The notes beneath the pieces are model-generated. The model made no database searches. It saw only the letters and a list, made by a program, of their open reading frames with translations, and was not told the origin of the DNA. A DNA stretch of 64,000 nt from Cytophagales bacterium. GTDB taxonomy: Bacteria; Bacteroidota; Bacteroidia; Cytophagales; 172606-1. This document shows, in pieces, positions 16,849-63,294 of the stretch; position 1 is the first letter of the stretch; every line of letters begins with the position of its first letter. The stretch spans positions 26,925 to 90,924 of the forward strand of contig JAUJNL010000002.1 of assembly GCA_030448185.1 (NCBI GenBank). The letters run 5' to 3'. The translations under genes and the position numbers were made by a program.

Positions 16849-16896
16849 TCCGAAAGACAGCCATTTTGAGCACGCGGGACGAGCAGTTCCGCGTTT

Positions 16897-17097
16897 TTAT
16901 ATCCATTGCATCACTTCGGATGTGTCTAACCATCCGCTCTGCCGGATCAAATCCCGGCAACGAACCTGCACGTCCCCTTTCCGGATCTGATAACGGTACT
17001 TTGGAATCCAAACGATCTGCACGTGCAACTGATGGACACTATGACTACGGTATCGATTCCGGCTCATAGCCCAAAGATACCGCCAGATGTGTCGCAA
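16897..17097 (-). mobile_element. N-terminal remnant of an IS200/IS605-family (Y1) transposase TnpA
   Basis: The translation MSRNRYRSHSVHQLHVQIVWIPKYRYQIRKGDVQVRCRDLIRQ matches the conserved TnpA N-terminus (H..h.YHhVW.pKYR...L). The frame stops after about 56 aa. The whole intergenic gap (16849-17164) is too short for a 150-aa TnpA, and no HUH/DHVH part is seen. Confidence 0.55.
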
Positions 17098-17164
17098 CTA
17101 AAGTCTTGCACTAAATTGCATGGTTTTACACCAGCCGACTTTAAAAATAAAAAAAGGGAAGTAA

Positions 17165-19188
17165 TTACTTCCCTTTTTCTACTCTTGATTGTCTTACGAG
17201 TGGTTCACTGACCACCGGCTTTCTCCGGATAGAGTCGGTTTTTTCTTTCTTCAATGAATCAGCATCAGGAGCAACTGCTTTCCCGTCTTTTGAGTTCTTG
17301 GACTTTTCATCTTTCTTTTCTCCCTCTTTCTTCAGTTCTTCTTTATCCATTGTACGTGCTGGCCAGAAGCTTTGCTCCCTCATGTACTTTTCCAGCGCCA
17401 GCCGCTGCTTTGATAATGTTGAATCAGGACGCAGGTACTTCTCCATAATCAGAGAAGCAATCGGAGCCGCTACCACTCCGCCAAAGCCGGCATTTTCTAC
17501 GTAACAGGCAATGGCAATTTTGGGGTTGTGCTTGGGAGCGAAAGCAATGAATGCCGAGTGGTCTTTGCCTTTTTTATTTTGAGAAGTACCGGTTTTGCCG
17601 CACACAATAATATCTGGTATTCGGGCTAAGCCTGCGGTACCTGCTCTTACCACATCTTCCATGGCATCAATTACTACCGCAAATTTGCTGCTGTCTACGC
17701 CAACATAGTTTGGAGTCGTATATTTGGGGTCAATCTTGCCATTTTTACCAATCCCTTTTATCAAATGAGGGGTTATATACCAGCCCCGGTTAGCGATAAT
17801 GGCCGCCAGATTGGCCATTTGTAAAGGCACTACTCCTAACTCACCTTCGCCGATAGCCATAGAGTACCAGTTAGAGAACTTCCAGCTACCTTTGCCGTAA
17901 ACTTTGTTAAAGTAGGCTGTATCAGGCACAAAACCGCCTTTTTCGTTGGGAAGGTCAAGCCCCAGCCTACGTCCAAACCCAAACCTGCCGATTGCTTCCC
18001 GCCAGCGCATCAGTCCTTTTTCTGAATCTTTGTACGTATTTCCGGTTTCGTTATGATAAATGTACTGCCGGAATGCCTGGTAAAAATACACGTTGCAAGA
18101 GTACTGAATCGCATTATGTAAGCCATTATGGTTGCTTGAGTGGTGATGACAACCCATAGGTCCCACATCAGGCAGACGGGCAGTAGGGTCAGCGAACCTT
18201 GTTGCAGATCAACCAGCGACTGTACCAGTTTAAATATGGAACCCGGACGGTATACAGCCTGAATAGGCCGGTTGTACAACGGAATATATGGGTCGCTGCA
18301 GCGGCACGAAATTTTTCATCATGTCGCGTCCCGTCAGCAAGCCAGGATCATAGGAAGGAGCTGACACCATGCAAAGAATCTCACCAGTCTGAGGTTCAAT
18401 GGCTACGATGCTGCCAATCTTGTTTTGCATCAAAGATTCAGCATATTTCTGCAATTCCAGATCAATGCTAGCAATTAAAGGCTCGCCAGGTACGGATAAT
18501 GTATCAAACTCACCGTTTTTAAATGATCCTTTAACCACGCCTTTTACGTTTTCTAGTACGTATCTCACCCCACGGCGTCCCCGCAACAACTCTTCGTATT
18601 TGGATTCCAGACCGCTAACCCCGACGTAGTCACCCTGATTATAGTAAGGATCTTTCTGCGCTTCTAACTGCTTTTTGCTGATTTCACCGATGTATCCCAG
18701 CCCATTAGCAAGTGACGCATGGGGATACGAACGGATGGTACGGGCAGTGTAGAAAAATCCGGGATAGTCAATTAGTTTGTCCTGAATCCGCAAAATCAAC
18801 GTTAGAGACTTGTTTAAACAGCGTATAGGGTTTGGAAGCGGAGGCTCGTCCGATTTTACGGTCCTTCCGGTATTCCATCATCAGCGTATCCAGGGTGCCT
18901 TTGGTAATGCCCATATCGCGGCAAAAAGGCTAATGTATCGACAATCTTAGTTTTTTTTTTCGGGATGAAAGAAATATCATAAACCGGACCGTTTATTACC
19001 ACTAGTCTATCTTTTCGGTCTAAAATTCGTCTACGGTGAGGATAGTCAACAACTCGTTTGATTACGTTGTTGTCGGCGGCGTATTTGTAATTGTCATCAA
19101 TCACCTGCAGATAAAATAGCCTAAGCAGGAAAACCAAGCCTACTGCTATGAATATGCCCTGGATGACGTATTTTTTTTCCTCTTGCAT
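17165..19188 (-). CDS. mrdA: Penicillin-binding protein 2 (peptidoglycan D,D-transpeptidase), frame broken at least 3 times
   Basis: Fragments 18856-19233 (TM segment IQGIFIAVGLVFLLRLFYLQVID), 18230-18799, 18010-18279 (PGSIFK, the SxxK motif) and 17165-18166 (SCN, the SxN motif; KTGTS, the KTG motif). It lies directly downstream of mreD. Confidence 0.85.
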
Positions 19189-19416
19189 GGATAACGTACA
19201 GGTAGTAGTAAGGGGTATTTGGAGAAATATCAAGAGATACTTTTATCCCGTATTTAGTAACCTGACGAGGCTTAGTAAAAGCTTCGTCTTTAGTAAATAT
19301 AACTCAAATTAATGAAAATTAGTTGCTCGCAATTTGTCTTTATAGTACCTTGTAATATCTGGGGCAAATTTCAAAAAAGACATTGCCGAGAAAAGAACTG
19401 CTTACTTTAAAAAAAG

Positions 19417-19917
19417 CTACTTCTTAAAATATTGCAATATAATAATCAAAGATCCGGTAAATAAGGTGCTGGCAAGTGCTTTCAGGATTGAACTCCACAG
19501 TAGCCCCCAATTACTGGCCTCAATCAGAAACAACGCCAGATGGTGAATAAAAAATCAATAGCAAGGCGTAGATGATAAACCAATCAGCCCCCATGGTTCT
19601 CAGTGAAATCCGAACCGTACCTTCGTATCCGCCCCGGGCGTAATCGTTTTCATTACCAAAGGCCTCAGAAAGGCAATTAACACGCAGGCGGCGGCGTGGA
19701 CGCCAAAACGTATCATAAAACGTGTCTACCAGCAGACCCGTGCCCAATGCGATAAATAGCAGCAACACCGGACTGGTTTCGTAGGGAAGAAGCAGCAAAA
19801 AGCTACGTAAACGAAACAGAAAGCCGTGTCAAACAGCACAAAGTTGCGCACCAGCACCAGCTGGGCCACCAAAAAAATAAAATTCAGAACCTGAATGATA
19901 CTATCTCTACTGTTCAT
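19417..19917 (-). CDS. mreD: Rod shape-determining protein MreD, frame broken
   Basis: Hydrophobic fragments 19726-19917 and 19520-19798, plus a hand-translated tail ...ALFLIEASNWGLLWSSILKALASTLFTGSLIIILQYFKK-stop ending at 19417. Its position between mreC and mrdA supports the call. Confidence 0.65.
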
Positions 19918-20752
19918 CGGGCTGCGGTGGGATGGAAGCCTTTTCCAGCGAGTCTTGTTCCAATTCCAGTTTATTCAGTACTACGTACACAAACTGAAGC
20001 TGATTGAACTTCGTGGAAAGGTTGAGGTCAATTTCGTAAAATGTTTCGGCGCCTTTATACCGGTAATCCTTTACCGTTCCTACCATCACGCCTTGGGGAT
20101 ATATAGTGTTATAACCTGAAGTGACTACGGTATCTCCTTTCTTCAGCTCAATGTGGCGGGGCGTACATCAAATCAATCTCCGATGGTTTTCCGCCATCCC
20201 ACTTAGCGGTACCAATGCTGCCGTTTTTCTTCAACTGGGAAGAAATTTGCATATCGGTATTAAGCAGGGAAAACACCGTCGAAAAATGCTCGGAACAACT
20301 CTTGATCTTCCCAACCACTCCTTCCGGACAGATTATGCCCATACCAGGTTTTCCAGTCCATCTGCACTACCTTTATCAATAGTTAGGTGATTGTGGGTGT
20401 AGCGGGTCGTATTATTCACCACCCGTGGCCGCACAAACTCAAAGCGCTTGGTCAGGGCTGAATCCAGACTATATCCCGCGGGGCCTGTGGCTTACTCAGG
20501 TTAAGCTGGGTGTACAATGCTCTCAGATTGGCATTTTCCCGCAAGTTGTTCATTTACCTCTTTCAATCCAACATAATCCTTTATCGACCGGGAAGTTTGC
20601 ATTACCCGGGCTGCGTAATGATTGGACGAATTAAAGAAGGCCGCGCCCTGGTACGTATTGTTCTTCACAATCAGCCAGCCGCATAATACTTCAAGGAGTA
20701 TAAAGAGTAAAAATGCCCGGTAGTTGTATAGAAACTGTAATAAACCCTGCAT
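19907..20752 (-). CDS. mreC: Rod shape-determining protein MreC, frame broken
   Basis: The likely start is MQGLLQFLYNYRAFLLFILLEVLCGWLIV (ATG at 20752). Fragments 20501-20815, 20148-20342 and 19907-20089 are in different frames. It lies between mreB and mreD. Confidence 0.7.
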
Positions 20753-20761
20753 GATTAGGAA

Positions 20762-20843
20762 GAGTGATTGAGTGAGTGAGTGACTAAGTGGCTGAGTTAG
20801 CAGATGCATTATCACTCAGTCACTCAGTTACTCAATCACTCAT
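20762..20843. repeat. Low-complexity imperfect hairpin (GAGTGA-type arms) filling the mreB-mreC intergenic gap
   Basis: Left arm GAGTGATTGAGTGAGTGAGTGACTAAGTGGCTGAGT. Right arm CACTCAGTCACTCAGTTACTCAATCACTCAT. The mreB stop is at 20851 and the mreC ATG at 20752. Confidence 0.8.
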
Positions 20844-20850
20844 TCGCTTG

Positions 20851-21874
20851 CTACGACATTAATACTGCCCGAAACGATTTAATATTCTTTAGGGCAATGC
20901 CGGTACCTTTCACTACGGCCCGTAAGGGATCATCGGCTACGTGGATCGCCAGTTTGGTTTTAGCTGCCAGACGTTTGTCCAGGCCGCGCAACAGAGCGCC
21001 TCCGCCAGTCAGGTGAATCCCATTGGTATAGATGTCAGCCGACAGCTCGGGAGGAGACATTTCGAGGGCTTTCAGTACGGCTTCCTCAATCTTGGAAACC
21101 GATTTATCTAAAGCGTAGGCAATTTCAGAATAAGAAACCTTAATGGTTTTCGGGATGCCGGTCATCAGATCACGGCCGCGGATTTCGTAGTCGCCGGAGG
21201 GACTTCGAGTTCAGTCAGGGCCGAGCCTACTTCAATCTTTACTTTTTCGGCCGAACGTTCCCCGATCAGCAGGTTGTGCTGACGGCGCATGTAGTCCAGA
21301 ATGTCTTTGTGAATACGTCACCCGCTACCCGGATAGACTGTTCACATACAATCCCAGAGAGCGCAATTACAGCAATTTCAGTCGTGCCCCCTCCGATATC
21401 CACGATCATGGAACCAACGGGCTGTTCGATGTCAATGCCGATCCCGATGGCAGCGGCAATGGGTTCGTAGACCATGTATACTTCCTTCGCGCCGGCGTGT
21501 TCGGCAGAGTCCTTAACGGCCCGTTTTTCTACTTCGGTAATGCCGGAAGGAATACAAATCACCATGCGGTGAGAAGGTGTAAAGGCTTACTGCCCGTATC
21601 GATCATCTTGATCATCCCGCGGATCATCTGTTCAGCGGCGGTAAAGTCGGCAATTACACCGTCTTTCAGCGGACGGATCGTCTTGATGTTTTCGTGGGTT
21701 TTTTCGTGCATCTGCATGGCCTCTTTGCCGATAGCCAGTACCCGTCCGTTGGTCTTGTCAATGGCAATAATGGAAAGGCTCATCCACTACAATCTTGTCT
21801 TTGTGGCTGATGAGGGTGTTGGCCGTACCCAGATCAATAGCAATGTCGCTGGTAAGAAAATTTAGCAATCCCAT
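20851..21874 (-). CDS. mreB: Rod shape-determining protein MreB (actin-like), frame broken at least 3 times
   Basis: Hand-translated start [32 protein letters not shown] (ATG at 21874). Fragments 21559-21783, 21266-21565 ([18 protein letters not shown]) and 20851-21165 ([16 protein letters not shown]). One break I checked is a C-run change, CCTCCGGCGAC where CCTCCCGGCGAC is expected. Confidence 0.9.
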
Positions 21875-22251
21875 GGGAGAATATCGTTGCGTTCTTGGTG
21901 GTGGAACGTTTATGAATCGAAGTTACTACTTTATTATCGCAAAATATTGTCGCAAATGTAATGACTGAAAAATCGTTCTCGCAATTGAAATGAAATTAAT
22001 TGTGAATAAAACTTCAACTTCAAAACTTTCTTATATGGTTTTCGCCACTTCTGGCTAAAAAGTCGCTTACATTTAAAATGGGAAGGGAAAAATAAAAGCG
22101 TTTCAAATCGTCTCTACAATCGTTGTACAGCCAAATCGCCCACTCTCTGCTTTTTTTTACTAGCCAGAGAAGTGGTCGATTAGAGATGTTATCAGGGAAG
22201 GTGACTTAAACAACTATTTCTCACATCATCAATAAATGCGCGGAATTTGCA

Positions 22252-23779
22252 CTAATGTTCAAAATGGCGGATTCCGGTGAAGACCATCGACATTTCGTTC
22301 GCATTACAGCAGTCGTTAATGGATTCCTGATCTTTGACTGATCCGCCGGGCTGTACAACGGAGGCTACACCTACCCTTTGGCAATCTCTCCACGCAATCG
22401 GGGAAGGGGAAAGGCATCCGAAGCCATGATCGATCCTTGCAGATCAAAACCAAACGATTTCGCCTTTTTCAATCGCTGCTTCAGGGCATCTACCCGGGGA
22501 CGTCTGCCCAACGCCGCTAGCCAGCAACTGCCCTCTTTCTGCCAGTACAATGGTATTAGACTCTGGTGTGCCCGGCAATCTTAGCGGCAAAAACCAGGCC
22601 CGTTTTTGGCTTCAGACGGGGCTTTTTCGGTGACCGTGCGCAGGTCGGCAATTGTCTCCGTATGGGTATCTTTGTCCTGCCGGATCACCCCGTTCAGCAG
22701 GGTTTTTACCAGCATTTCCGGCAGGCTACGTCTTTCCGCTTCAGCAGAATCCGGTTCTTTCTGGACTTCAGCAGGCTGAGGGCTTCCTCCTGGTAGGAGG
22801 GAGCAATCAGTACTTCGAAGAAAAGTTTATTGAGTTCTTGGGCCGTAGCCAGATCTACCTCTTGATTCGTCACAATTACCCCGCCAAAGGCCGAAACCGG
22901 GTCAGCGGCCAGGGCATTGAGATACGCTTCTTTGGGATCTTTTCCGGTGGCTACCCCGCAAGCGTTGGTGTGCTTAATAATGGCAAATGCCGTATCTCCG
23001 CCAAACTCATCAATCAGCATCACTGCCGCATCCACGTCTACCAAATTATTATAAGATAGTTCCTTGCCGTTCAGCTGCTCAAACATGGCATCCAGGTCAC
23101 CGTGGAACCAGCCTTTCTGATGAGGATTTTCCCCATACCGCAGTTGACGACCGGCCGGAAGGCTCATCTTCAGGGAAGGTATTTCGTTATCTGAATTGAA
23201 ATAATTGAAGATGGCCGAATCATAATGGGAGGTTACGCTGAAGGCATGGGCCGCAAAACGTTTCCGGTCTTCCAGGTCAGTAAAGCCGCCTTTCTCCTGT
23301 AATACTTTTTCCAGGTCACCATACTGATTCTGTGAAGCCACTACCACCACATTGCGGAAGTTTTTGGCTGCCGCCCGAATCAGCGAAATACCACCAATAT
23401 CAATTTTTTCGATGATATCTTCTTCAGAGGCACCGGAGGCAACCGTTGTCTCAAAAGGGTATAAGTCTACGAGTACCAGATCAATAAAGGGAATTTCAAA
23501 ATCTTTGACCTGCGTATTGTCTTCAGGGTCTTCCCGACGGAACAGGATGCCGCCGAAAATTTTGGGGTGCAGCGTCTTCACGCGGCCACCCAGAATTGAA
23601 GGATAACCGGTAACCGTTTCAACGGCAGTAACTGGGATATTCAGCCCGGCAATAAAAGATTGCGTGCCGCCGGTAGAATACAATTGAACGCCTTGCTGGT
23701 GCAGCAGCCGGACAATGGGTTCCAGCCCGTCCTTGTGGTAAACTGAAAGGAGGGCTGAGTGAATTTTGGTAGTGGACAT
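22252..23779 (-). CDS. purH: Bifunctional AICAR formyltransferase / IMP cyclohydrolase, C-terminal third frame-broken
   Basis: ORF 22706-23779 starts [43 protein letters not shown]. The hand-translated end is ...[33 protein letters not shown]-stop at 22252, which is the typical PurH C-terminus. Confidence 0.9.
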
Positions 23780-26919: not shown

Positions 26920-27075
26920 TAAGTAATTGAGGGGAGGTCCTAAATCGGATTACAAATCCGCCATTTCCTAGGTTCGGCATTGCAAATGCCGAACAACCAT
27001 CCGGTTGGTCCGCATTTGCAATTCGGACACCACGTGAGCTCGGATTTGTAATCCGATTTATGGCCACCCCTCATT
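26920..27075. repeat. REP/BIME-like cluster of four CGG(M)ATT-NNN-AAT(K)CCG hairpins, bounded by a perfect 20-bp inverted repeat
   Basis: TAAATCGGATTACAAATCCG (26941-26960) is the exact reverse complement of CGGATTTGTAATCCGATTTA (27041-27060). Inside are GTTCGGCATT-GCA-AATGCCGAAC (26972-26994) and GTCCGCATT-TGC-AATTCGGAC. The outer imperfect arms are TGAGGGGAGGTCC and GGCCACCCCTCA. Confidence 0.85.
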
Positions 27076-54025: not shown

Positions 54026-54051
54026 ACGGGCATTGGCGCTGCCATTAGATG

Positions 54052-54090
54052 ATCCCCGGCCGGTTTTCAAAACCCGCCGGGGATTTTTTT
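54052..54090 (+). terminator. Rho-independent terminator; last core feature before the AT-rich segment
   Basis: ATCCCCGGC pairs with GCCGGGGAT, followed by TTTTTTT (54084-54090). Confidence 0.8.
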
Positions 54091-54405
54091 AACTCTGGCA
54101 TTTACTTCTCCTTATGCAACGTTTCACGGCAGAAAGCCCTGCCAGGGCTGCACGTTTAAATTTGACGCAGTAGTCAACCTATGCGGGTAAAAAAATAGAA
54201 ACAGTCTGATGCAACAGGTCTAAGTTTCCCGATTTTGGGCTTATGCTATCTGCCCGCTTAATGGTAAGTTAGTGTGTATTGTACACATTATTGGGTGTAT
54301 TTTTAACAGTCAGTCAGGATTGAAAACAGGGCTTCATTTGAATTTTAACCGCTTTTCAAATAAGTTGTGTGTATTAGTATGTTGTACACAAATAAAAAAA
54401 ACAAT

Positions 54406-54836
54406 ATGAAAACACTTTTTTTAACTCTGGTAACCGTTCTAATTTACTGTTCAGCTACTTGCCAAACGTTGCAAAATGACAAGATAATTGGAGAATGGAC
54501 CGTTAAGAATTCCCAGTTGATTGCTGAAATGGGACTCGATAAAGAACAGTCTCAACAAATGGAAAGCCTAAGGAAAGGATTCATTGGCTCCACATTTGTC
54601 TTTAAAGCTGACCGTATCTTCCAGATTAAGTTTCCTGCTACTGCCAATAACTTTATGAAGGAGCTAGCGATGTTGAATAATAAAAATGGAAACTAAATCC
54701 GAAAGAAAGTTCAGTAGCAATTGGAACAGATAAAGACCAATACTCTTTAATGGGAATTCTTGTAAAAAATCAAGGAGGTAAGACCTATTTTATCCTTGAG
54801 GAGAGCCCTTTCTTATTAGAAGTCACTAAGAAATAA
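54406..54836 (+). CDS. Cassette ORF A: hypothetical small secreted protein (one frame break in an A-run near 54690)
   Basis: MKTLFLTLVTVLIYCSATCQ signal. The body continues after the break as KWKLNPKESSVAIGTDKDQYSLMGILVKNQGGKTYFILEESPFLLEVTKK-stop (54836). Confidence 0.5.
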
Positions 54837-54841
54837 TCTGT

Positions 54842-54926
54842 GGCTAACACCGCGTTCGACCGACCACCAGCCCTGCCAAGCGCATAGCCTCACCGCAATG
54901 GTCATGGCGTCGGGAATGCTAGTTCC
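54842..54926 (+). repeat. attC-like element 1 (starts 6 nt after the ORF A stop; interrupted at its 3' box by the intron)
   Basis: Left box GGCTAAC (54842-54848). The inner stem pairs TTC[GA]CCGAC with GTCGGGAA. Central part GCGCATAGCCTCACCGCAATGG. GTT at 54922-54924. The expected right tail CTGCAACCCAAAAAA follows the intron at about 55733. Confidence 0.45.
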
Positions 54927-55729
54927 GTGTGCGACTCGTTTTCTTGAAAGATCGAAAGATCGGGAAAGAAGCAGCATGGAGACATGCTGACAACTCAAGG
55001 TTCGAACAAGTGCGACTTTTAGTCAACTCTTGTCCCAAACGTGAATTGGAGAAAGCGTTGCCCCCATTGTTAGTCTTGACACGACTAAGGGTGGATGCAG
55101 GGGCAAGAAGCCGGTCACGTTAAACGCTCTAGCGAATCCCGGCAAGCAGGAAGGTACGGACAGCGCAGAGCGAAGCTACTCTGACCCATCGTAAAGCACG
55201 ACAAGCCAACGAGCGTTAACAGGCTTGACCAAAACGGTACAGGATAGGGGGCTGGCGGCGAGGGATCCGACCAGTATTCACGCCCGCAAAACCCAGTGGA
55301 AAGTAGCGTCCTAACCCTTCACAAAACGAACCTTGGGAACGAGGAAAAGCCTTGTGTTCTCTTTCTGGTAGCAGTTTTACCCGAAAGCAGGTGTCAACCG
55401 CATGAACACAAGGAGTAGGATTGTCTATCAAGCTAACGCTTCGGGTAATGCCGAAGATACGCCCACGTAGACACCTTAGGATTGGAAGGTAAACTGGCCG
55501 GTAGGAGTCAACATGTTATGAGCACGGATGCAAATCTGATGTATGAATGGAAAGATTAAACCTGAAAGGGTTTACTTTCAAGCTCCAAAAAGCGAATTTA
55601 CCAAGCCTCTTTCATCGAAGAGGTGCTCCTTGCCAGGGAGCCAATTCAAGGAGGAGCCGGATGAGGGGAAACTATCATGTCCGGTTTTGGAGGACCAGCC
55701 GAAGGGGTAACCCTTCGGCTGAGTCTAAC
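54927..55729 (+). ncRNA. ORF-less group II intron (about 0.8 kb; 5' end is either 54927/54929 or 55010)
   Basis: 5' GUGUGCGAC/GUGCGAC. Domain V at 55654-55687 is exactly 34 nt, GAGCCGGAU-GAGG-GAAA-CUAUC-AU[GU]CCGGUUU, with the AGC triad, a 2-nt bulge and a GNRA loop. Domain VI at 55692-55726 has a perfect stem CAGCCGAAGGG-GUAA-CCCUUCGGCUG and a bulged A at 55722, 7 nt before ...CUAAC. Domain IV is reduced to a stub, CCUUG-13nt-CAAGG. No ORF in the segment has RT motifs. Confidence 0.75.
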
Positions 55730-55784
55730 TACCTGCAACCCAAAAAACGAACACAAATTTCACAATAATTCTAACTGAAATAGT

Positions 55785-56600
55785 ATGGACATAGCTGGGA
55801 AAAATATTTTAATCACAGGTGCTTCTGCTGGAATAGGCAAAGCTTTGGCTGATACGTTGGCGAATGAAGCGGCTGTTTTGGTTTTGGTCGCAAGACGACT
55901 TGAAAAAATTGAAGAAATAAAAGCCAACCTTTTTAAAAATATCCAAACCTAAAAGTTATACTCTTTGGAAAGGATATTTCAATAAGAGAAAACCAAATTG
56001 AAATTTTGGCAGAATTGCACAATCAAAATATTGCATTGGATATGTTAATCAACAATGCGGGTATTGGGGATGAAAGCCTGTTTTTCGAAAGTGAATGGAA
56101 AAAAGCAGAAAACATTATTGACCTGAACAACAAAAAGCGTGATCAGCCTTACCCACCTTTTAGTGCCTCAGTTTGTAAAAAATCCGAAAGGAAAATGTAT
56201 CGTTTTTATAGGCTCGGGCGGAGGTATTGCTTGGATGGCGGGCAGCCTTGATTATTACGCTGCAAAACACTTCATCACAGCAGCGGCAATGATTGTAAGA
56301 GCTGAACTTAAACCAAAAGGCATTCAAGTAAATTTGGTTTGTCCCGGCCCCGTAGATACAGAGTTTGATGCTCTTGCAGGTATTGAAAAAGGAATGAAGG
56401 GCGGACCTTCCCAAAAAACAAGAATTTCATCTGAGGAATGCGCCAATGATATTATAAAAGGCATTAAGCAAAACAAAGCTGCCATATTTCCTGGCAAAAA
56501 ACTAAATAGATTAATGAAATTCTATTTATTGCTTCCGTGGAATATTCGTAGGATTATTTTAGAAAATGATGGCAAGAAATTATATAAAAATCAATTTTAG
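55785..56600 (+). CDS. Cassette ORF B1: short-chain dehydrogenase/reductase, frame broken at least 2 times
   Basis: MDIAGKNILITGASAGIGKALA (TGxxxGIG). Also NNAGIG. The YYAAK motif (YxxxK) is in ORF 56139-56600. Fragments lie at 55785-55950, 56006-56251 and 56139-56600. Confidence 0.75.
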
Positions 56601-56602
56601 TT

Positions 56603-57058
56603 ATGTATGAACTCTTAAAAATTTCAACGCTTATAGTTGCGGGTTGGTTAGCGGGAGCCGAAAGTGGTTCTTGGTCTTGTGTACATCCGGTAATTGCCAA
56701 ACTTGATCCCGACAACCAAATACTTTTCCAAAAGGGATTGCTTAAAACCTTTGGACGGATAATGCCGGTCTTAATGCCTTTAAACTTTATGTTGGTTATT
56801 TTACTGGCCAGTTTCACTGAAGATAAGACTTCAATGATTTTTTATTTACGACTTATTGCGGTCATTCTTTTGGCGACAATGATTTTTACAACAGTTGTCT
56901 TTAACGTTCCTGTCAATATCCAAACTGGAAAGTGGAATGATGAATACAATGAGAAATGGAAAAAGAAAAGAAAAATATGGCAAATTTTTCAAGGTTATCG
57001 CTCTATAATACTATTTATCGTATTTGTGGTGTTAGTAGTTGCACAAATCCGATACTAA
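56603..57058 (+). CDS. Cassette ORF B2: DUF1772-like small membrane protein
   Basis: 151 aa with 4 hydrophobic segments. It starts 3 nt after the SDR stop. The DUF1772 call is from memory. Confidence 0.55.
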   Translation: MYELLKISTLIVAGWLAGAESGSWSCVHPVIAKLDPDNQILFQKGLLKTFGRIMPVLMPLNFMLVILLASFTEDKTSMIFYLRLIAVILLATMIFTTVVFNVPVNIQTGKWNDEYNEKWKKKRKIWQIFQGYRSIILFIVFVVLVVAQIRY

Positions 57059-57059
57059 A

Positions 57060-57224
57060 GGAAGCTAACCAAAAAAGGCAGCTGGTAACATTGACTATAA
57101 GCAATGCGGGTTTGGTGATAAATTGAAAGTGAGTGAACATTAACAAACATATCAGTAGGCTGAAAGTGAAGAGCTTTTTAATCCCGCACTCACGCATCGC
57201 CTTGTACGTTCGTTGGCAGTAAGC
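57060..57224 (+). repeat. attC-like element 2 (longest, AT-rich interior)
   Basis: Left GCTAAC (57064-57069) is complementary, with one G-T pair, to GTTGGC (57212-57217). Internally GTGAGTG pairs with CACTCAC and GCGGG pairs with CCCGC. It ends AGTAAGC + AAAAGAAAAAATG. Confidence 0.35.
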
Positions 57225-57234
57225 AAAAGAAAAA

Positions 57235-57630
57235 ATGAAACGAGGATTGTTACTTGTGTTTCTGCTGATCAGCAAAGCGGCTCTCTCACAAACTCAATTA
57301 GAGATGAACCAGCAGGCACACGCTGCCTATCAGCAGGCAGACAAAGAATTGAATACGGTATACCGTAAGATTTTGTCCTTGTATAAAGAGGATACCGTCT
57401 TCATTGCCAAATTAAAGGAGTCGCAGCGGATATGGGTTAAGTTCCGCGATGCCGAAGTGAAAATGAAGTATCCGGACCGAGAAGCCGGATTTTATGGTTC
57501 TGTTCATCCACTTTGTTGGTCGAACTACTTGGAACAGCTTACTTATCAACGAACCGAAAAACTAAAAGAATGGCTTAAGGGAGCCGAAGAAGGGGATGTA
57601 TGTGCGGGGTCAGCCATGATTAAAGAATGA
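57235..57630 (+). CDS. Cassette ORF C: DUF1311 (LprI lysozyme-inhibitor-like) secreted protein
   Basis: 131 aa. Signal MKRGLLLVFLLISKAALSQ. AYQQADKELNTVYRKIL...SQRIWVKFRDAEVK...GSVHPLCW...TYQRTEKLKEWL fits DUF1311. Confidence 0.7.
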   Translation: MKRGLLLVFLLISKAALSQTQLEMNQQAHAAYQQADKELNTVYRKILSLYKEDTVFIAKLKESQRIWVKFRDAEVKMKYPDREAGFYGSVHPLCWSNYLEQLTYQRTEKLKEWLKGAEEGDVCAGSAMIKE

Positions 57631-57639
57631 AAAGATAAA

Positions 57640-57766
57640 GCCAACTGCCAACACCACGCTGACCGATAACCGGGCCGCTAACCCTAGCCTTACCGCAAAG
57701 CCAACGCTGGAAAAACCCTAGCTTCGAGCCACGCCGTCGGATAGCTTTGCTCCGATATGTGCAACC
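57640..57766 (+). repeat. attC-like element 3
   Basis: GCCAACTGCCAACACCACGCTGACCGATAACCGG shares the AACACC-N9-CG-NNAACC pattern. It ends ATGTGCAACC + AAATAGAAAAATG. Confidence 0.35.
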
Positions 57767-57776
57767 AAATAGAAAA

Positions 57777-58133
57777 ATGACAAATCACGTATTCTTTTAC
57801 CTTGGACTTTCGATGATTATGATGCATGAGATGGACGCAATCAGGTGTAAAGAATGGAGAATCTTCCCCGGAATGTCATTTTTAAATGACAATATGGGCT
57901 TTAAAGTTTTTATGTTCGCTCATGTCCCACTATACTACTATATCTTTAGCAGTCTTGATGGCGAAAATAATGAAAGCTTTATTTATGGATTTAGCGTTTT
58001 TCTTGTCATTCATCTCGGTCTGCATTTACTGTTTTTAATGCATAAAAAGAATGAGTTCAAAGATTGGATTTCTTGGACAATTATTGGTGGAACTGGAGTG
58101 TGCGGATTACTCGAAATAGTATTAACAAAATAA
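57777..58133 (+). CDS. Cassette ORF D: small 4-TM membrane protein (DUF6713-like?)
   Basis: MTNHVFFYLGLSMIMMHEMDAIRCKEWRIFPG..., hydrophobic throughout. The family call is tentative. Confidence 0.5.
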   Translation: MTNHVFFYLGLSMIMMHEMDAIRCKEWRIFPGMSFLNDNMGFKVFMFAHVPLYYYIFSSLDGENNESFIYGFSVFLVIHLGLHLLFLMHKKNEFKDWISWTIIGGTGVCGLLEIVLTK

Positions 58134-58137
58134 TGAC

Positions 58138-58220
58138 GGCTGCACACAACACCATACCCGCCGACAACCGGTGCGCCTCATCGCACGGCCGGCGCTGGGT
58201 AGTTTTGATACATTAGCACC
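58138..58220 (+). repeat. attC-like element 4 (best attC-like fold)
   Basis: CACAAC (58145-58150), then 6 nt, then CCCGCCG (58157-58163). Next GTGCG-CCTCAT-CGCAC, then CGGCG[CT]GGG (58190-58199), then 2 nt, then GTTTTG (58202-58207). This is an R''/L''...L'/R'-like layout with extrahelical bases. Confidence 0.45.
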
Positions 58221-58328
58221 AATAGAAAAAATATAAAGAAAACGTAACAGCGACTAGTAGAAGTACAATTGGATAATCACTATTTTAAGTATTCTTTACC
58301 AAAAAACACTCTTTAAGGATAAACTCAG

Positions 58329-58919
58329 ATGAACCCAAGACTACTCCTTTGCTTTGCCCTCCTAGCGGGGCTAGTGTCCTGTAAGCAGACCGCTGAAATT
58401 GCCCCTAGCGAAGACGTGACTACGCTGCAAGCACGCTTCCACGGCAAGTACAAACCCATTTCCTCCACAAGCAGCGAAGCCTTAGACATAGACCAAGACG
58501 GCAAAGCCTCCACGAATATGCTTCAAGAAATAGCGGCCTTGCAAAACCAGCCAATCGAGGTGCATATCTACGGGAAAAGTCAGTACAATGCTGAGCCGTC
58601 TTTCAGTTTTGTGCATTACTGGCCTAGACAGGAATTCCGTCCGGCCGTACCGCAAGGCTATGATCCTACAGTAAAGGTGAGCTATTACACCAGTGTAGTC
58701 CACTGGGACTTTGCCTTTGACCAATCCCTTACCCAGCTTCAGTTACAACCCCAACCTCCTACTTTAACCGACCCGGAATTTTATACGCCTCCCCAAGCCG
58801 TTACCGTAAAAGAGAAGGACCGCCTGGAAGTCACCCTCACTAAACGCTTATACACCACTAGTGGCTGGAAGACGGTTCAGATCGTAACCCTCTACGAGCT
58901 ATACACCAAAGCAACGTAG
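58329..58919 (+). CDS. Cassette ORF E: hypothetical lipoprotein
   Basis: 196 aa, intact. Lipobox in MNPRLLLCFALLAGLVSCKQ. Confidence 0.6.
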   Translation: MNPRLLLCFALLAGLVSCKQTAEIAPSEDVTTLQARFHGKYKPISSTSSEALDIDQDGKASTNMLQEIAALQNQPIEVHIYGKSQYNAEPSFSFVHYWPRQEFRPAVPQGYDPTVKVSYYTSVVHWDFAFDQSLTQLQLQPQPPTLTDPEFYTPPQAVTVKEKDRLEVTLTKRLYTTSGWKTVQIVTLYELYTKAT

Positions 58920-58983
58920 TCCTTCTGGTGAAGGAAACTTTACGGTAAATCTTCATATAAAAGACATGACTAAACGAAGTAAT

Positions 58984-59084
58984 GGTGCTAACACCCCGCT
59001 GAAACGCCAACCACCCCTCCCTACCGCAGGGTTATCAGCGCAACGGACCTGGCTGCGGCAATGTTTGTTTCGTTATGCCCAACC
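58984..59084 (+). repeat. attC-like element 5
   Basis: TGCTAAC (58986-58992) + ACCCCGCTGAAACGCCAACC. The right side is GTTTC-GTTATGC (59072-59078) + CCAACC. GCTAAC pairs with GTTATGC with one bulged base. Confidence 0.4.
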
Positions 59085-59094
59085 GAGAGAAATT

Positions 59095-59484
59095 ATGTTT
59101 GATGATGAAAAGACAGAGTGGATAAAGAGAGAGTTTAAGGTAGAGGATTTTAAAGTACCTTATAGCGATTACGAAGAAAATTGAAAGTAAATTCATTATC
59201 AAGGATGATCGGCATATGCACTTTAATTATTGGAATGAGCACTTAAAAGGAGTTAAATTGGTCAAGGAGACTCTTCAATCCGCAGATGAGTTTTACCCTC
59301 TATAACCGAAGAAACGGTTAATTATTGGTTTATTATGATAGAAGGTTTCTCTTCCGGACATAGACACCGGCTGATCGATGCAAAACCATACCCAGCCCAT
59401 ACGTTTTTTCGCTGGCTTGGCACACCCTGGATGTATGTAGTGGACAAGCGATACAACTGGTTGATACTAATTGAAATTAACTAA
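59095..59484 (+). CDS. Cassette ORF F: hypothetical protein reconstructed across 2 frame breaks
   Basis: MFDDEKTEWIKREFKVEDFKVPYSDYEE / FIIKDDRHMHFNYWNEHLKGVKLVKETLQSADEFYPL / ITEETVNYWFIMIEGFSSGHRHRLIDAKPYPAHTFFRWLGTPWMYVVDKRYNWLILIEIN-stop. Three consecutive frames each look protein-like. Confidence 0.35.
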
Positions 59485-59533
59485 TGACCGGAAGAGAATT
59501 TATTATGCCAGACAAGGTATAGAAGAAAAAATA

Positions 59534-59644
59534 AAGGCCGGTGCTTAACACCGCCCGCAAACGACAACCGACCTTCCTCAACGCATTGCTCCACCGCAAT
59601 GGGATGGGTTTACGTGGGTTCCTGTTCCGTTAGCCGTTAGCAGG
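59534..59644 (+). repeat. attC-like element 6
   Basis: AAGGCCGGTGCTTAAC (GCTTAAC at 59543-59549 fits RYYYAAC). CCCGCAAAC pairs with GTTTA-CG-T-GGG, with bulges. The central hairpin pairs CATTGC with GCAATG. The right boxes are GTTAGCC (59629-59635) and GTTAGCA. Confidence 0.45.
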
Positions 59645-59841
59645 AAAAACGTCTCCTAACGGATAGAGAAGTTAGTAAAAGTCAGACAAGCCGGGTTTGC
59701 AGCAACAGATGAAGGGTTGCCAGCCGAAACCGAGCCGGAAGCAGTTGACAAAGCCCTAAGTCAACGATTTAAAACAAAAGATGAGTTGCGGCCAGTACAA
59801 TTGGTGAAAAGAGACAACGAAGCCCCGAAATTGAAGGATCA

Positions 59842-59870
59842 ATAAAGACAAAGGCTGAATGGCTAACACA
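59842..59870 (+). repeat. attC-like element 7: left end only (truncated)
   Basis: ATAAAGACAAAGGCTGAATGGCTAACAC is 25/27 identical to the start of element 8 (61770-61797). The next ORF starts at 59894. Confidence 0.5.
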
Positions 59871-59893
59871 AAATCACTGCTCGATATTATTCT

Positions 59894-61770
59894 ATGAGAC
59901 AATATTTGATACTGTTAATTCTGCTTATAAAGTTCTCCAATGCGTTATGCCAGGCCGAAAAGATAGATTCCATATTCAGTGACTGGAGATATCTTGATAG
60001 ACCAGGTGGTGTAATTGCAGTACTTAAAGACGGAGAAGTGCTTTACAAAAAAGCTTTTGGAGCATCAGATATCCAAAGGAGAAGCCCAAATTCAATCGGT
60101 ACACCTTTTGAATTAGCTTCCATAGCCAAACAATTTACAGCCACCTGTATTGCCCTTCTTGAGGAACAGGGTAAGCTTTCTAAAGAGGATGACATCAAAA
60201 TTTACTATCCTCAATTCCAGTTTTCAGAAAAAATCACCATAAAGAATCTGCTTGACCATACCAGTGGAATAAGAGAAGCGTATGTGCTAACCATCCTGTC
60301 GGGAAAGGTCAATTTAAAAGGACAGGTGCCGAAACGATATCAAACCAAGGAGCATCTGTTAAAAGTCCTGTCTAAGGAAAAAGACTTGAACTTTAAGACA
60401 GGTGATGAGCTCGACTTTCGCATTTTCTCATAATGCAACCTACCAAAGGGTTGAAATAGGGTTAATTCTTCAAATAGTTTTTGAACATCATGTCTAAAAC
60501 GCGATATTCAAAAACTAAAAATACCTTTATGTGCGCCGTTTAAGCCTGGTTTTCTGATTTTCACAAATGCGAAAGTCGAGATGAGATGGTGTACACAAAC
60601 ATCAACTATATTCTATTGGGTGACATTGCAGAAAAAGTGAGTGGTATGAAACTAAGACAATTTGCTGATAGTGCTATATTCAGGCCCTTGAAAATGCATA
60701 ACACTTTTTCAACGATCACGAAATCGGCACCAAAACGGTAGGCTATTATTATACCGGAAAAACATTTAAAAAAGGCATTCAGAAGGAGGCATTGTAGAGA
60801 TCACAATTTAATAAGCACCATTGATGATTTAATTCTTTGGAGCAATAATTTTTATGCGAACAAACTTGGAAAAAAGATCCCCTGTTCTTTGACAAGTTAA
60901 CTACAAGCAGCAGGCTAACTAATGGCGAAGCTACGGGATACGGGTATGGCCTGTTTACTTCAACCTATAAAGGGTTTGATCTGGTGTATCATGGGGGAGA
61001 TAATGGGATCCACACCTCCATACTATTGACAGTACCAGATAAAAGAATAGCGGTGGTTTGTCTTGCCAACTCGTCAAGATATAACGCCCTGGAGAGTAAG
61101 CATACAAAATCGTTGATATATTTTGGAGGATTCTTTGCCTAAATCAAAACCTTTGGAGCCTTTTAGCTATATCAATTTGGATAAAGAACAGCTTTCTTCT
61201 AAAGTTGGGCTTTACTATTTGATTGCAAAGAATAATCTCGGGCAATTGCGAAAGGTAACGTTAGAAGATGAAAGCCTGTTCATCAGTGATCATTATAGTG
61301 CAAAAGGGCTGAAGCTACATGCGGTCAGTGAGAATTATTTTGTCGCAAAGAATCCATCAGATGAATATTTACACATTTACTTTTTATCGGATTCAACCTC
61401 CGGGCATGCGCTCCGGGAGGTATACCTGGATAAAGTAGATCTGAAATTTTCGGCATACAAACCCGTTCAGGTTCAACCTGATGACTACAAAGGCACATAC
61501 GTCAACGAAAGCACCGGGGCAAGGATTAAAGTGAGTACCAGCAAAGGCGGAATCAAGGCAAGAAAGGGAATAATTAGAATACCCATGACTGTTTTCAAAG
61601 CGGATGTGTTTTATGCAACACAGAATAATGCATTGTTTGTCTTTGAAAGAAACAAAGTTAATACCGTTATTGGTTTAAAAATAAATGCAGAGGATTTTAG
61701 AAATCTCAGGTTGAATAAAATAAATCACCTATTAAAAAGAGGCGACGAAGGCCGTTGCAAGAAGCATTGA
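59894..61770 (+). pseudogene. Cassette ORF H: beta-lactamase-family serine hydrolase with C-terminal extension. Interrupted by a MITE and further frame breaks.
   Basis: SIAKQFTA (SxxK) lies in ORF 59894-60433. After removing 60410-60585 the frame continues TGDEMVYTNINYILLGDIAEKVSGMKLRQFADSAIFRPLKMHNTFF (YxN). There are further breaks at 60700-61120. The C-terminal domain is ORF 61123-61770. Confidence 0.75.
60410..60580. mobile_element. 171-bp MITE with 16-bp perfect terminal inverted repeats and 5-bp target-site duplication
   Basis: The left TIR CTCGACTTTCGCATTT (60410-60425) is the exact reverse complement of the right TIR AAATGCGAAAGTCGAG (60565-60580). ATGAG flanks both ends (60405-60409 and 60581-60585). 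Excision restores the hydrolase frame. There is no internal ORF. Confidence 0.85.
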
Positions 61771-61890
61771 TAAAGACAAAGGCCGAACGGCTAACATCAA
61801 ACAGTCTAATAACTGGGGCTCCTCCAGCGCATAGTCAAATTGCAACACCACCAATTTACGGCTGCTCATGCTACGTTGGCGGTCATTGTA
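61771..61890 (+). repeat. attC-like element 8
   Basis: TAAAGACAAAGGCCGAACGGCTAAC (GGCTAAC at 61789-61795). GAACGGCTAAC is largely complementary to GTTGGCGGTC (61875-61884). Internal small hairpins are CTGGGG-CTC-CTCCAG and AAATTG-9nt-CAATTT. Confidence 0.4.
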
Positions 61891-61923
61891 TAGACCCCCC
61901 GCAAATATTAAACAGACAAGAGT

Positions 61924-62375
61924 ATGACAACAGATCAATATCCAAAATTTTATTTGTACAGACGTATTGTTCAGGCAAAACTCTTTATTGACAAATTCTA
62001 TTCAGAAAAATCGACCTTGATAATATTTCAGACGAAGCATACTTTTCGAAATTTCATTTTATAAGACTGTTTAAATCCATTTACGGAAAAACACCTCACC
62101 AATACCTTACAACTGTCAGAATTGAGAGAGCACAACAGCTTCTCCAGCAAAACAAATCAGTAAGTGAAGTGTGTTTTTTAGTAGGTTATGATAGTGTAAG
62201 TACTTTTAGCGGACTATTCACCAAATTGGTAGGTAAAACACCTTCTCAATACTTAACTTATTTTAATCAACGAAAAAGTCAAATACAATCGAAACCGTTG
62301 GCTTTCGTTCCAAATTGTTATGCCTTTATGCACGGTTGGACCGAGAATCGCAATTTTGAAGAAACCAATATCTAA
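61924..62375 (+). CDS. AraC-family HTH transcriptional regulator (small), one frame break in an A-run
   Basis: MTTDQYPKFYLYRRIVQAKLFIDKFYSEK / IDLDNISDEAYFSKFHFIRLFKSIYGKTPHQYLTTVRIERAQQLLQQNKSVSEVCFLVGYDSVSTFSGLFTKLVGKTPSQYL. Confidence 0.75.
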
Positions 62376-62422
62376 ATCATTGCTGTCATTTGCATTGAGT
62401 TTAACAATTAAATGGATAAGCA

Positions 62423-62857
62423 ATGATAACAAAAATGACGGTAACAAACATTCACGTTATAGACCAAAACAGAGCCTATGACTTCTATGTAAACAAATTA
62501 GGGTTCAAACTTGTGGATGATATTCCAATGGGACCAGATACACGATGGTTGACAGTTTCACCACCAGACCAGCCTGACCTACAGCTTGTATTATTCCCAG
62601 TTACTGTAAGCAAAATGTTCCCAAAAGAAATTGCCGAAACTTTAATCGACTTAATCAAAAAGGGAATATTTGGATGTGGTGTATTAACCTGTAAAGACAT
62701 TCTTGCCACTTACGAAGAACTAAAAGCAAAAGGTGTAGAATTTATAAAACCACCTACAAAAGAATTTTATGGTACTGAAGCACTATTCAAAGATGATTCG
62801 GGAAACTATTTTTCATTGCAATCTATAAACAACTTTGGCAATGAAAACAATATTTGA
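62423..62857 (+). CDS. VOC-family (glyoxalase/bleomycin-resistance fold) protein
   Basis: 144 aa, intact. IHVIDQNRAYDFYVNKLGFKLVDD...GVEFIKPPTKEFYGTEALFKDDSGNYFSL. Confidence 0.8.
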   Translation: MITKMTVTNIHVIDQNRAYDFYVNKLGFKLVDDIPMGPDTRWLTVSPPDQPDLQLVLFPVTVSKMFPKEIAETLIDLIKKGIFGCGVLTCKDILATYEELKAKGVEFIKPPTKEFYGTEALFKDDSGNYFSLQSINNFGNENNI

Positions 62858-63294
62858 CACTTCGACAAGAGATGAATTATTACAGAGAATTAACTCACTC
62901 AATGAAGAATGCAAACCTATTTGGGGCAAAATGAATGTTTATCAAATGACCAAACACTGCACTATTTGGAACCAGTGGGTTTTGGGCAAAAAAGATTGTA
63001 TTTACAAACAAGATTTTCTTGGAAAAATATTTGGCAAAATGGCATTAAAGAGTAATACAAAGGACGACAAGCCTATAAGCAAAAATATGCCAGCAGGAAA
63101 AGCATTTTCTGTGAAAAGAAAAGGAAGGCGATTTAAAATCTCAAATGTCAATTTGGACTGAGCAAATTAAATCCTATGAAAACTTTTCAAATGATAATTT
63201 CATTCATGACTTTTTTGGTAAAATGACAATTGACCAAATTGGAATTTTTGCATATAAGCATAATGACCACCATTTAAGACAATTTAATGTGTGA
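62841..63294 (+). CDS. DinB-like/DUF1569-like protein, one frame break in an A-run
   Basis: MKTIFDTSTRDELLQRINSLNEECKPIWGKMNVYQMTKHCTIWNQWVLG... then ...EGDLKSQMSIWTEQIKSYENFSNDNFIHDFFGKMTIDQIGIFAYKHNDHHLRQFNV-stop (63294). Confidence 0.55.

Follow-up and report, generated by a model that had tools for sequence, protein, structure and literature searches.

Does an AT-rich segment of a Cytophagales contig hold integron-like gene cassettes, and which recombinase could have assembled them? The question was raised by a stretch of 64,000 nt (hereafter the window; positions 26,925 to 90,924 of contig JAUJNL010000002.1, assembly GCA_030448185.1), in which an initial annotation of the bare sequence had described positions 54,091–63,294 as an integrase-less array of attC-like sites resembling a cluster of attC sites that has no integron integrase (CALIN). 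That description was upheld by the matches of a covariance model built from homologous sites, by covariation within the sites, by a rule that ties each site to its successor and by the linkage of related arrays to one family of recombinases. We put at about 0.8 the probability that the segment is a cassette array of a Bacteroidota-specific, integron-like platform for gene capture, whose recombinase would act on folded attC-like sites.

Homologous hairpin sites in the window

GC contents of 0.34–0.46 (mean ~0.41) were observed across 54–63 kb as compared to ~0.49 in the preceding 53 kb, confirming the AT-richer tract of 9.2 kb that had been noticed initially. About eight co-oriented cassettes lie between 54.1 and 63.3 kb, split by seven structured sites of ~100 nt and one partial copy (Table 1). 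Alignment of these elements revealed the conserved blocks AACACC, CCGAYAACC and CCTCAYCGCA together with a GTT box. The pattern AACACC-N8-9-CG-NN-MACC-N7-CYNANCGCA had four occurrences in the region as compared to none in any of 100 shuffles, and a long left module, ATAAAGACAAAGGCYGAAYGGCTAACA, was present in two copies where zero were expected.

A covariance model (R1) was built solely from 39 homologous sites in other Bacteroidota genomes, none of them from the window, and was run on the 64 kb with filters off. Six window sites were matched, all on the + strand and with E-values from 1e-13 to 2e-3, and nothing below E = 3 was found in the rest of the 64 kb. Eight separating elements had been proposed in the initial annotation, and these six stand as homologues of one another, the first of them being split by an intron (see below). 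Element 2 has AAC and GTT boxes in register with those of its neighbours, yet exhibits no sequence homology to the other sites and no R1 match; it contains an internal hairpin (i.e. GTGAGTG/CACTCAC). Element 7 retains a left end only. This end (59842–59868) is a 27-mer that is present twice, with zero copies expected, and duplicates the 3' end of the hydrolase cassette. For element 4, the right box had been misplaced at a GTTTTG, the true box being ATTAGCAC at 58212. As a side observation, element 7 sits just upstream of the intact hydrolase cassette, and its R'' and the R'' of site 8 both complement the R' of site 6.

Folds had also been proposed for individual elements. Single-sequence minimum-free-energy folds of each element as single-stranded DNA, on both strands, were unconvincing in energies and shapes, and the structure was therefore judged comparatively. 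From an alignment of the 39 non-window sites, RNAalifold derived a consensus hairpin of three helices (4, 3 and 7 bp), with asymmetric internal loops between the helices and a terminal loop of ~26 nt. Compensatory double changes were observed in all 14 pairs; one pair, for example, was never broken, being C-G in 24 sites and U-A in the other 15. Paired cells amounted to 90.7% as compared to 68% after shuffling, the observed value being reached in 0 of 500 shuffles, and the covariation score was 0.593 as compared to 0.196 for shuffled alignments and 0.05–0.12 for slid partners. The proposed folding thus survives as a comparative hairpin and not in its single-sequence form. A loop motif, CC(C/T)CA(C/G)CGCA, is conserved among the sites, and no known RNA family was found to span the elements in a search of Rfam at a permissive threshold.

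The AAC of R'' was invariant (54/54 sites), and R' began with GTT in 34 sites and with ATT in 19. Wherever R' started with A (19/53 sites), the facing base of R'' was always C. On the top strand A and C would not pair, whereas on the bottom strand the combination becomes a T:G wobble, a hint that the sites may fold as the bottom strand, as in integrons. Boxes starting with ATT, which make up about one third of all R' (in arrays at loci L033 and L056 and at window position 58212), are unlike the canonical GTTRRRY.

Cassette boundaries and variation among related arrays

In integrons, the crossover lies in the GTT of R', so that the bases that follow are part of the next cassette and complementary to its own R''. 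The seven variable bases of R' were compared with those of R'' for all pairs of sites within arrays. The reverse complement of R' agreed with the R'' of the following site at a mean of 6.15/7 positions, perfectly so in 28 of 48 adjacent pairs, as compared to 2.62/7 for the two boxes of one site and 2.85/7 for non-adjacent sites. Adjacent pairs that failed were few and coincided with missed or interrupted sites. Within the window, successive sites matched at 5 (site 1 to site 2, with the intron removed), 6, 6, 7, 4 and 7 of 7 positions. Class 1 integrons, serving as a positive control, follow the same rule (e.g. R' GTTATGCCGC of aadB, then R'' GCGGCATAAC of VIM-2). Such a rule is unexpected for repetitive extragenic palindromic (REP) elements, terminators or miniature inverted-repeat transposable elements (MITEs).

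A degenerate-pattern scan of 185,579 species-representative genomes returned 54 loci, ~40 of which were chance matches in GC-rich coding DNA. True members of the family were all from Bacteroidota (i.e. two Cytophagales metagenome-assembled genomes (MAGs), one Sphingobacteriales MAG and Rhodocytophaga aerolata), plus one 2-kb contig binned as a cyanobacterium. This contig (L027; JAUJON010000389.1, 2154 nt; Thermosynechococcaceae cyanobacterium YX3bin19) carries a Bacteroidota-type site and is probably misbinned. Profile searches placed the true members in co-oriented arrays with one site per small open reading frame (ORF), there being 11 sites in 8 kb in L046, 7 in L010 and 9–11 in L033. A gap of 185 nt separates the array of L010 (Sphingobacteriales MAG) from a preceding, same-strand gene for a tyrosine recombinase, and the boundary of the array's first cassette, GTTACCAGTC, complements that cassette's own R''; L010 is probably continued by L046, which together would hold 18 sites. 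Arrays lie directly downstream of the recombinase gene, and are co-oriented with it, in L056, L057, L074 and L077 as well. Twelve R1-type sites follow the recombinase in L056 (Rhodocytophaga rosea, CP048222.1). The sites of L057 (Spirosomataceae), L074 (a Cytophagales MAG) and L077 (OW818663.1) differ in sequence from the R1 type and obey the same logic, with perfect R'/R'' chaining in L057 (e.g. GTTGGTGGCT to AGCCACCAAC) and consecutive exact links ~117 nt apart in L074 and L077. In L076, a 6.2-Mb ENA contig, the cassettes after the recombinase are interleaved with three group II intron reverse transcriptase (RT) genes on the opposite strand. R'/R'' chains were also sought with a detector that does not depend on the site family. 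Allowing one mismatch, it was no better than shuffles in AT-rich DNA; with exact 10-mers, true links were recovered in L056, L057, L074 and L077, but the output was noisy.

Variation between strains begins at a defined position. A Chitinophagales recombinase (P0038) was present in four samples (L058–L061) with identical upstream genes and an identical 181 nt after its stop codon, beyond which the samples diverge exactly at ...TTTATACAAAT|GTTA (i.e. ...CAAAT|GTTA). The gene sets beyond this GTTA differ, comprising a LinB-like gene with small ORFs, a type I restriction-modification system with DarT/Macro, a methyltransferase or a cupin. The invariant part after P0038 contains repeated AAATAAACGCAA motifs and an inverted repeat, which are also present in L057 and of which L010 and L056 have a variant; this part is an attI-like site. 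These findings bear on the proposal that the sites are REP-, bacterial interspersed mosaic element- or MITE-like palindromic repeats accumulating in intergenic DNA. The sites are indeed palindromic and ~100 nt in length, and single or paired copies lie on other Cytophagales MAG contigs (L011, L029, L004 and L026). However, the other 54 kb of the window contain no copies, orientation within arrays is strictly uniform with one site per cassette, the boundary rule holds, neither target-site duplications nor MITE-type terminal inverted repeats are present, and linkage of the sites to a recombinase and an attI-like site was observed, making accumulated repeats an exceedingly improbable explanation.

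Single cassettes recur in differing contexts. Window positions 58262–59031, containing the lipoprotein cassette, are 99.5% identical to L027 while both neighbours differ, and another cassette is common to L010 and L046. Two sites are hybrids: the window site 58980–59084 has the same left arm and loop as L027 128–231 and a different, poorly complementary right arm (breakpoint after CCGCAGGG), and L046 5746–5848 is identical to L010 5512–5614 in the left arm and conserved loop and has a different, non-complementary right arm. With breakpoints in the loop, some exchange must therefore proceed otherwise than at R', probably by homologous recombination within the conserved loop; this is a minority pattern, because the arms covary strongly overall. 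Homologous recombination would also be expected to leave breaks in the conserved loop, which suits a proposal in which the sites are RNA-level signals of acquired genes (i.e. terminators, processing sites or structures of 3' or 5' untranslated regions) shuffled by homologous recombination with no dedicated recombinase. The covariation fits an RNA fold equally well, and the sites lie between stop and start codons. This proposal is nevertheless very unlikely, as it leaves unexplained the 7–10 nt after GTT that complement the R'' of the next site and not that of their own, the divergence of strains exactly at GTT beside an attI-like site, and the beginning of arrays right after one recombinase family.

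The array-linked recombinase and the comparison with integrons

The recombinase linked to these arrays is an Xer/IntI-like tyrosine recombinase of ~540 aa, found in Rhodocytophaga rosea, the Sphingobacteriales MAG, Spirosomataceae and Chitinophagales. It has at least 7,600 homologues (>7,600 at E <= 1e-20 among the best 8,000 candidates), most of them of 530–600 aa, and among the matches listed all those whose source names an organism are from Bacteroidota. The catalytic set R-K-H-R-H-Y is invariant, a SAM_4 core-binding domain is present and the C-terminal tail, IKSPLD, carries an IntI-like SPLD. The recombinase was closest to XerA and VchIntIA, and the L010 protein matched the XerA, IntI and XerD models below their cut-offs. 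Full-length members pass NF040815 ('site-specific tyrosine recombinase/integron integrase') and fail TIGR02249, scoring 209–221 bits in two stretches (184–221 overall) as compared to a cut-off of 265. Alignment to VchIntIA (PDB 2a3v) was likewise obtained in two stretches, with 17 residues where IntI has a 60-residue region containing the integron-specific insertion. Three N-terminal beta-beta-alpha-beta-beta-alpha repeats, amounting to ~270–320 extra residues, were identified from the alignment and an AlphaFold model and gave weak sub-threshold matches to Pfam HARP; in a Foldseek search with the whole model, matches were obtained only to the Xer/IntI core, with XerA best (4a8e, 5hxy). In 6/6 distinct loci, the recombinase adjacent to these arrays belonged to this insertion-less family. 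In two lineages, a small gene of the SSB family (proteins that bind single-stranded DNA) lies directly beside the recombinase gene (L057 9607–9948; L074/L075 11676–12038), once upstream and once downstream, and may be relevant to a single-stranded substrate.

The resemblance to Xer proteins (XerA, or XerC/D at dif) extends to the core-binding and catalytic domains and to the NF040815 match, and the I2 helix of IntI is lacking. The arrays could thus be duplex modules of the Xer/dif type, such as pdif modules or integrative mobile elements exploiting Xer, in which the hairpin would be irrelevant and the recombinase would act on duplex R boxes; taken on its own, the boundary rule is also what a duplex crossover at R' would produce. 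Xer systems, however, have one short duplex site per replicon or pairs flanking modules, whereas the Bacteroidota system consists of arrays of 100-nt covarying hairpins, and Xer recombinases lack the N-terminal triple repeat. The strong covariation of the arms implies selection on an intrastrand fold, and R'' and R' are ~85 nt apart as compared to central regions of 6–8 bp in dif sites. In about one third of R' boxes the first base is an A facing an invariant C, a combination that only the bottom strand turns into a T:G wobble, and SSB genes adjoin the recombinase in two lineages. A duplex mechanism is accordingly regarded as highly improbable.

The integron-like platform that we favour would operate on cassettes that each comprise a short leader rich in A, between one and three genes and a recombination site of ~100 nt, each site having an R'' box that ends in AAC, an imperfect hairpin of three segments and an R' box beginning with (G/A)TT. 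Cassettes would be inserted and excised by site-specific recombination with a crossover at or beside (G/A)/TT of R', such that the bases after the crossover would travel with the next cassette and pair with its own R'' upon circularisation. The candidate enzyme, by association, would be the ~540-aa tyrosine recombinase encoded directly upstream of the relatives' arrays and beside the attI-like site. We infer that this recombinase catalyses cassette exchange, that it acts on one folded strand (probably the bottom one) and that the cassettes are transcribed from upstream.

How far the arrays conform to integrons was assessed feature by feature. An R'' ending in AAC and an R' starting with GTT around an imperfect palindrome were both present and the cassette-boundary rule was obeyed, in agreement with the R''/R' logic proposed in the initial annotation. 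Relatives carry an attI-like site beside the recombinase, with varying array content, and in the window such a site could not be recognised. An IntI containing the I2 insertion adjoins none of the arrays, there being none in the window and the relatives' recombinase being insertion-less. As a stand-in for the IntegronFinder model, a proxy attC model (R2) was built from 11 class-1 attC sites with annotated R and L boxes. It detected three of five held-out class-1 sites (VIM-1 with 49 bits, VIM-2 with 34 and aadA5 with 23), gave a weak match to catB2 (E = 0.17) and missed arr-2; on the Bacteroidota arrays it reached 10.7 bits at best (E = 1.5). The match to an attC model that had been put forward initially as a check of the array was thus not obtained with this proxy. 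With no IntI insertion and no R2 match, two defining features of an integron sensu stricto are therefore absent; the functional logic nonetheless appears, from sequence comparison, to be the same as in integrons. A CALIN is defined by at least two attC sites with no integrase nearby, and in the window seven attC-like sites are unaccompanied by a recombinase, although the definition calls for attC-model matches and the proxy gives none. The labels 'attC-like' and 'CALIN-like' are supported by these tests, and 'integron sensu stricto' is not.

The likeness to chromosomal integrons and CALINs (IntI/attI/attC; Cury 2016, Neron 2022) comprises co-oriented arrays of mostly single-gene cassettes, a left box of the RYYYAAC type, an imperfect hairpin with unpaired spacer and bulges, and a right box of the GTTRRRY type. 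It also includes the boundary at GTT, with R' complementing the next cassette's R'', an attI-like site beside the recombinase gene, the existence of some arrays without an adjacent integrase, and a cargo of defence and miscellaneous accessory genes. In contrast to integrons, the Bacteroidota recombinase lacks the IntI insertion and has the extra N-terminal triple repeat, its gene runs in the direction of the cassettes, the R box extends to ~10 bp, R' is often ATT and the loop motif is conserved.

Several observations weigh against the favoured platform. The window sites form 8–13 of the 14 pairs as compared to a mean of 12.5 in the others, and the wobbles in the stem (16 G:T vs 20 A:C) single out neither strand as the folded one. 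In both hybrid sites, which lie downstream of the shared cassettes, the homology ends inside the loop and not at R'. The window contains no tyrosine recombinase related to the array-linked one (tblastn), and the similarity of its lead-in to the attI regions of L010 and L056 is weak (score 17–18), leaving no convincing attI in the window. R2, a class-1-derived proxy, matched none of the window sites. The linked recombinase, moreover, is without the I2 insertion, which is held to be essential for single-strand attC recombination (PMC8138268; PMC7790495). Smyshlyaev et al. (PMC8138268) describe the IntI insertion as 'not fully conserved' in an integron-like subgroup. The absence of a recombinase from the window had been stated correctly in the initial annotation, and lacking both this gene and a clear attI, the window array is therefore CALIN-like, dependent on a recombinase encoded elsewhere, or a fossil.

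An ordinary CALIN, in which canonical attC sites are recombined by a bona fide IntI with an I2 domain elsewhere in the genome, would account for the R''/R' logic, the hairpin, the boundary rule and an intron targeting as in integrons, and one review places integrons 'within Bacteroidota' (PMC8618304). Against this, the proxy model finds no match despite its performance on the held-out sites, the adjacent recombinase is insertion-less in six distinct loci, and the IntegronFinder papers find essentially no integrons in Bacteroidetes proper, the Bacteroidetes entries of IntegronFinder 2.0 being limited to In0 elements and a single Salinibacter integron. An ordinary CALIN is therefore considered quite unlikely. 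In a 2024 preprint, Bacteroidota are counted among the clades 'previously found without any integrons'. No description of the arrays, or of the recombinase as a cassette platform, was found in the literature covered, which excluded subscription journals, so that a prior description is possible; the integron-like platform is apparently undescribed.

The chances are about even for a broader proposal, namely that Bacteroidota (Cytophagales, Chitinophagales and Sphingobacteriales) carry a widespread second type of integron, with an I2-less recombinase on hairpin sites, recognition via the HARP-like repeats and perhaps a dedicated SSB. IntegronFinder-type searches would have overlooked such a type, since neither their integrase profile nor their attC model works on it. 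Either single-strand cassette recombination would have been invented independently, or a relative of the pre-I2 ancestor of integron integrases would have survived. Integrons are now seen as essentially absent from Bacteroidota, and I2 as the innovation that enabled recombination of single-stranded attC sites. If the proposal is true, a major phylum gains a gene-capture platform with restriction-modification, DarT/Macro and GmrSD as known cargo, and the evolution of hairpin recombination becomes directly testable in Rhodocytophaga rosea, which is cultured and completely sequenced. For annotation, such regions would be hot spots of horizontally acquired genes that are probably missed by current integron finders.

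Group II introns, cassette genes and cargo

The first site of the window was invaded at GT/T by a group II intron, which had escaped the initial annotation. Its ends match the group II definition of 5' GUGYG and 3' AY (i.e. GTGCG at 54929 and ..AC at 55729). Domains V/VI were recognised at 55651–55729 by Rfam RF00029 (Intron_gpII; 48.3 bits vs a gathering threshold of 40), and RF04357 also matched the intron (56.8 bits vs 53). Domains I–IV had no match to an Rfam model, and no maturase gene was found in the window. Excision in silico restored CCGTTACCTGCAACCC, a junction that is uninterrupted in L057; with R1, the R' of site 1 was aligned to the intron's first bases. The RT-encoding introns of L033 and L076 are on the opposite strand, inserted after the hairpin at ..GTGT/ of the R'' complement. 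L076 12931–21596 contains three copies of one group II intron (with a 436-aa RT/maturase) in successive sites, all opposite to the cassettes and with the 5' junction ..TATAGCGTGT|GTGCG after the hairpin.

Group IIC-attC introns target TTGT/T on the bottom strand in integrons (PMC7923331; PMC3001079), and the introns described here share with them (Leon & Roy) an insertion point that follows a hairpin, namely GT/T in an R box. The L033 and L076 introns are like group IIC-attC introns in position (bottom strand, R'' complement) and in orientation. The window intron, in contrast, occupies R' (CCGT/T) on the top strand, has the orientation of the cassettes and lacks an intron-encoded protein, and it is thus not assigned to the group IIC-attC class. 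Co-oriented insertion into the top strand is known in integrons just as an exception (PMC7923331).

The credible ORFs of the array are without exception on the + strand (ORF list) and, as had been stated initially, functionally mixed. Pfam matches were obtained for a short-chain dehydrogenase, a DUF1772/anthrone-oxygenase-like protein, LprI, DUF6713, a beta-lactamase-family serine hydrolase and a VOC protein, and the AraC and DinB/DUF1569 identities were established by homology to a Pedobacter operon. The last cassette has the gene order of this conserved chromosomal Pedobacter operon and 74% nucleotide identity to it (L064–L066, 5501–6867), confined exactly to the three ORFs; a fresh transfer from Pedobacter was rejected because the identity is merely 74%. 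Downstream of this cassette no complete recombination site was found, just a weak R''-like GGGCAAAC at ~63310. Frameshifts fragment the genes for the dehydrogenase, hydrolase, AraC and DinB proteins, and the ORF of cassette 1 (54406–54696) probably extends to ~54836 over an assembly frameshift. Core genes of the window (18230–23779) are likewise split, mreB being in three pieces and mrdA, mreC and purH also affected. Pseudogenisation of the cassettes was therefore rejected, the broken ORFs being assembly indels and not decay, and broken ORFs anywhere in the window should not be taken as pseudogenes. The lead-in before the first cassette is a possible remnant of an attI site. Just upstream, a strong hairpin resembling an intrinsic terminator (54034–54091; CCCCGGCCGG...CCCGCCGGGG, then a T run) stands at the end of the DUF4494 gene; its match to Rfam NsiR1 was below threshold and due to chance.

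Table 1. Sites, cassettes and other features of the array, in window coordinates
Feature	Positions	Strand	Evidence and remarks
Non-coding lead-in, DUF4494 terminator to first cassette	54091-54405	+	two copies of AGTT(A)GTGTGTATT..GTACACA
Cassette 1: small secreted protein	54406-54838	+	ORF 54406-54696; no Pfam match
Site 1, 5' part: R'' TGTGGCTAAC (54839-54848), three-segment hairpin, then GT of R'	54836-54928	+	R1 match 54836-54939, 67.7 bits, E = 1e-13; 13/14 pairs
Group II intron, ORF-less, 801 nt, in GT/T of site 1 R', co-oriented with cassettes	54929-55729	+	5' GTGCG, 3' ..CTAAC
Site 1, 3' part: TACCTGCA, completing R' as GTTACCTGCA; also start of cassette 2	55730-55739	+	reverse complement of R' vs site 2 R'' AGCTGGTAAC: 5/7 variable positions
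Cassette 2: short-chain dehydrogenase (55785-56600, indel-split) and DUF1772/anthrone-oxygenase-like membrane protein (56603-57058)	55785-57058	+	Pfam adh_short, Anthrone_oxy
Site 2, divergent sequence: R'' AGCTGGTAAC (57080-57089), R' GTTGGCAGTA (57212-57221)	57080-57221	+	reverse complement of R' vs site 3 R'': 9/10
Cassette 3: LprI/DUF1311 lysozyme-inhibitor-like protein	57235-57630	+	Pfam LprI, E = 1.6e-20
Site 3: R'' AACTGCCAAC, degenerate R' GATATGTGCA (57754-57763)	57640-57766	+	R1 23.9-34.8 bits; adjacency to site 4: 6/7
Cassette 4: DUF6713 membrane protein	57777-58133	+	Pfam DUF6713, E = 3.8e-21
Site 4, loop shortened: R'' TGCACACAAC, R' ATTAGCACCA (58212-58221)	58138-58224	+	R1 44.1 bits; adjacency to site 5: 7/7
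Cassette 5: lipoprotein, without assigned family	58329-58919	+	cassette also on contig JAUJON010000389.1 (L027), in other context
Site 5, hybrid: R' GTTATGCCCA (59072-59081)	58980-59084	+	R1 44.1 bits; 9/14 pairs
Cassette 6: short hypothetical ORFs, frame ambiguous	59085-59536	+	ORF list
Site 6: R'' GGTGCTTAAC, R' GTTAGCCGTT (59629-59638)	59537-59641	+	R1 65.9 bits; reverse complement of R' = site 8 R'', 10/10
Element 7, partial duplicate: remnant of hydrolase-like gene 3' end and R'' AATGGCTAAC; no hairpin, no R'	59806-59872	+	aligns to 61734-61801
Cassette 7: beta-lactamase-family serine hydrolase, frame indel-broken	59894-61770	+	Pfam Beta-lactamase, E = 1e-23
Site 8: R'' AACGGCTAAC, R' GTTGGCGGTC (61875-61884)	61783-61887	+	R1 42.7 bits
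Last cassette: AraC-type regulator, VOC/glyoxalase and DinB/DUF1569, three-gene unit	61924-63294	+	Pfam Glyoxalase; Pedobacter homology

Defence genes were observed downstream of the recombinases in related loci, i.e. GmrSD in L057 (12611–14255), a type I restriction-modification system with DarT/Macro between hsdS and hsdR in L059 (12175–19499), and SNF2/PLD with an MmeI-like methylase in L058 (18101–21629). L058 also contains three tandem non-coding units of ~307 nt (16832–17825), each ending in CCGTTATATAAAATTATCAG, which is the sequence after the attI junction in L059 and L061; these units may be empty or non-coding cassettes. In L046, a transposase of the IS4 family (3925–4983) lies within the array opposite to the cassettes, and the R'/R'' link across the insertion is intact (7/7).

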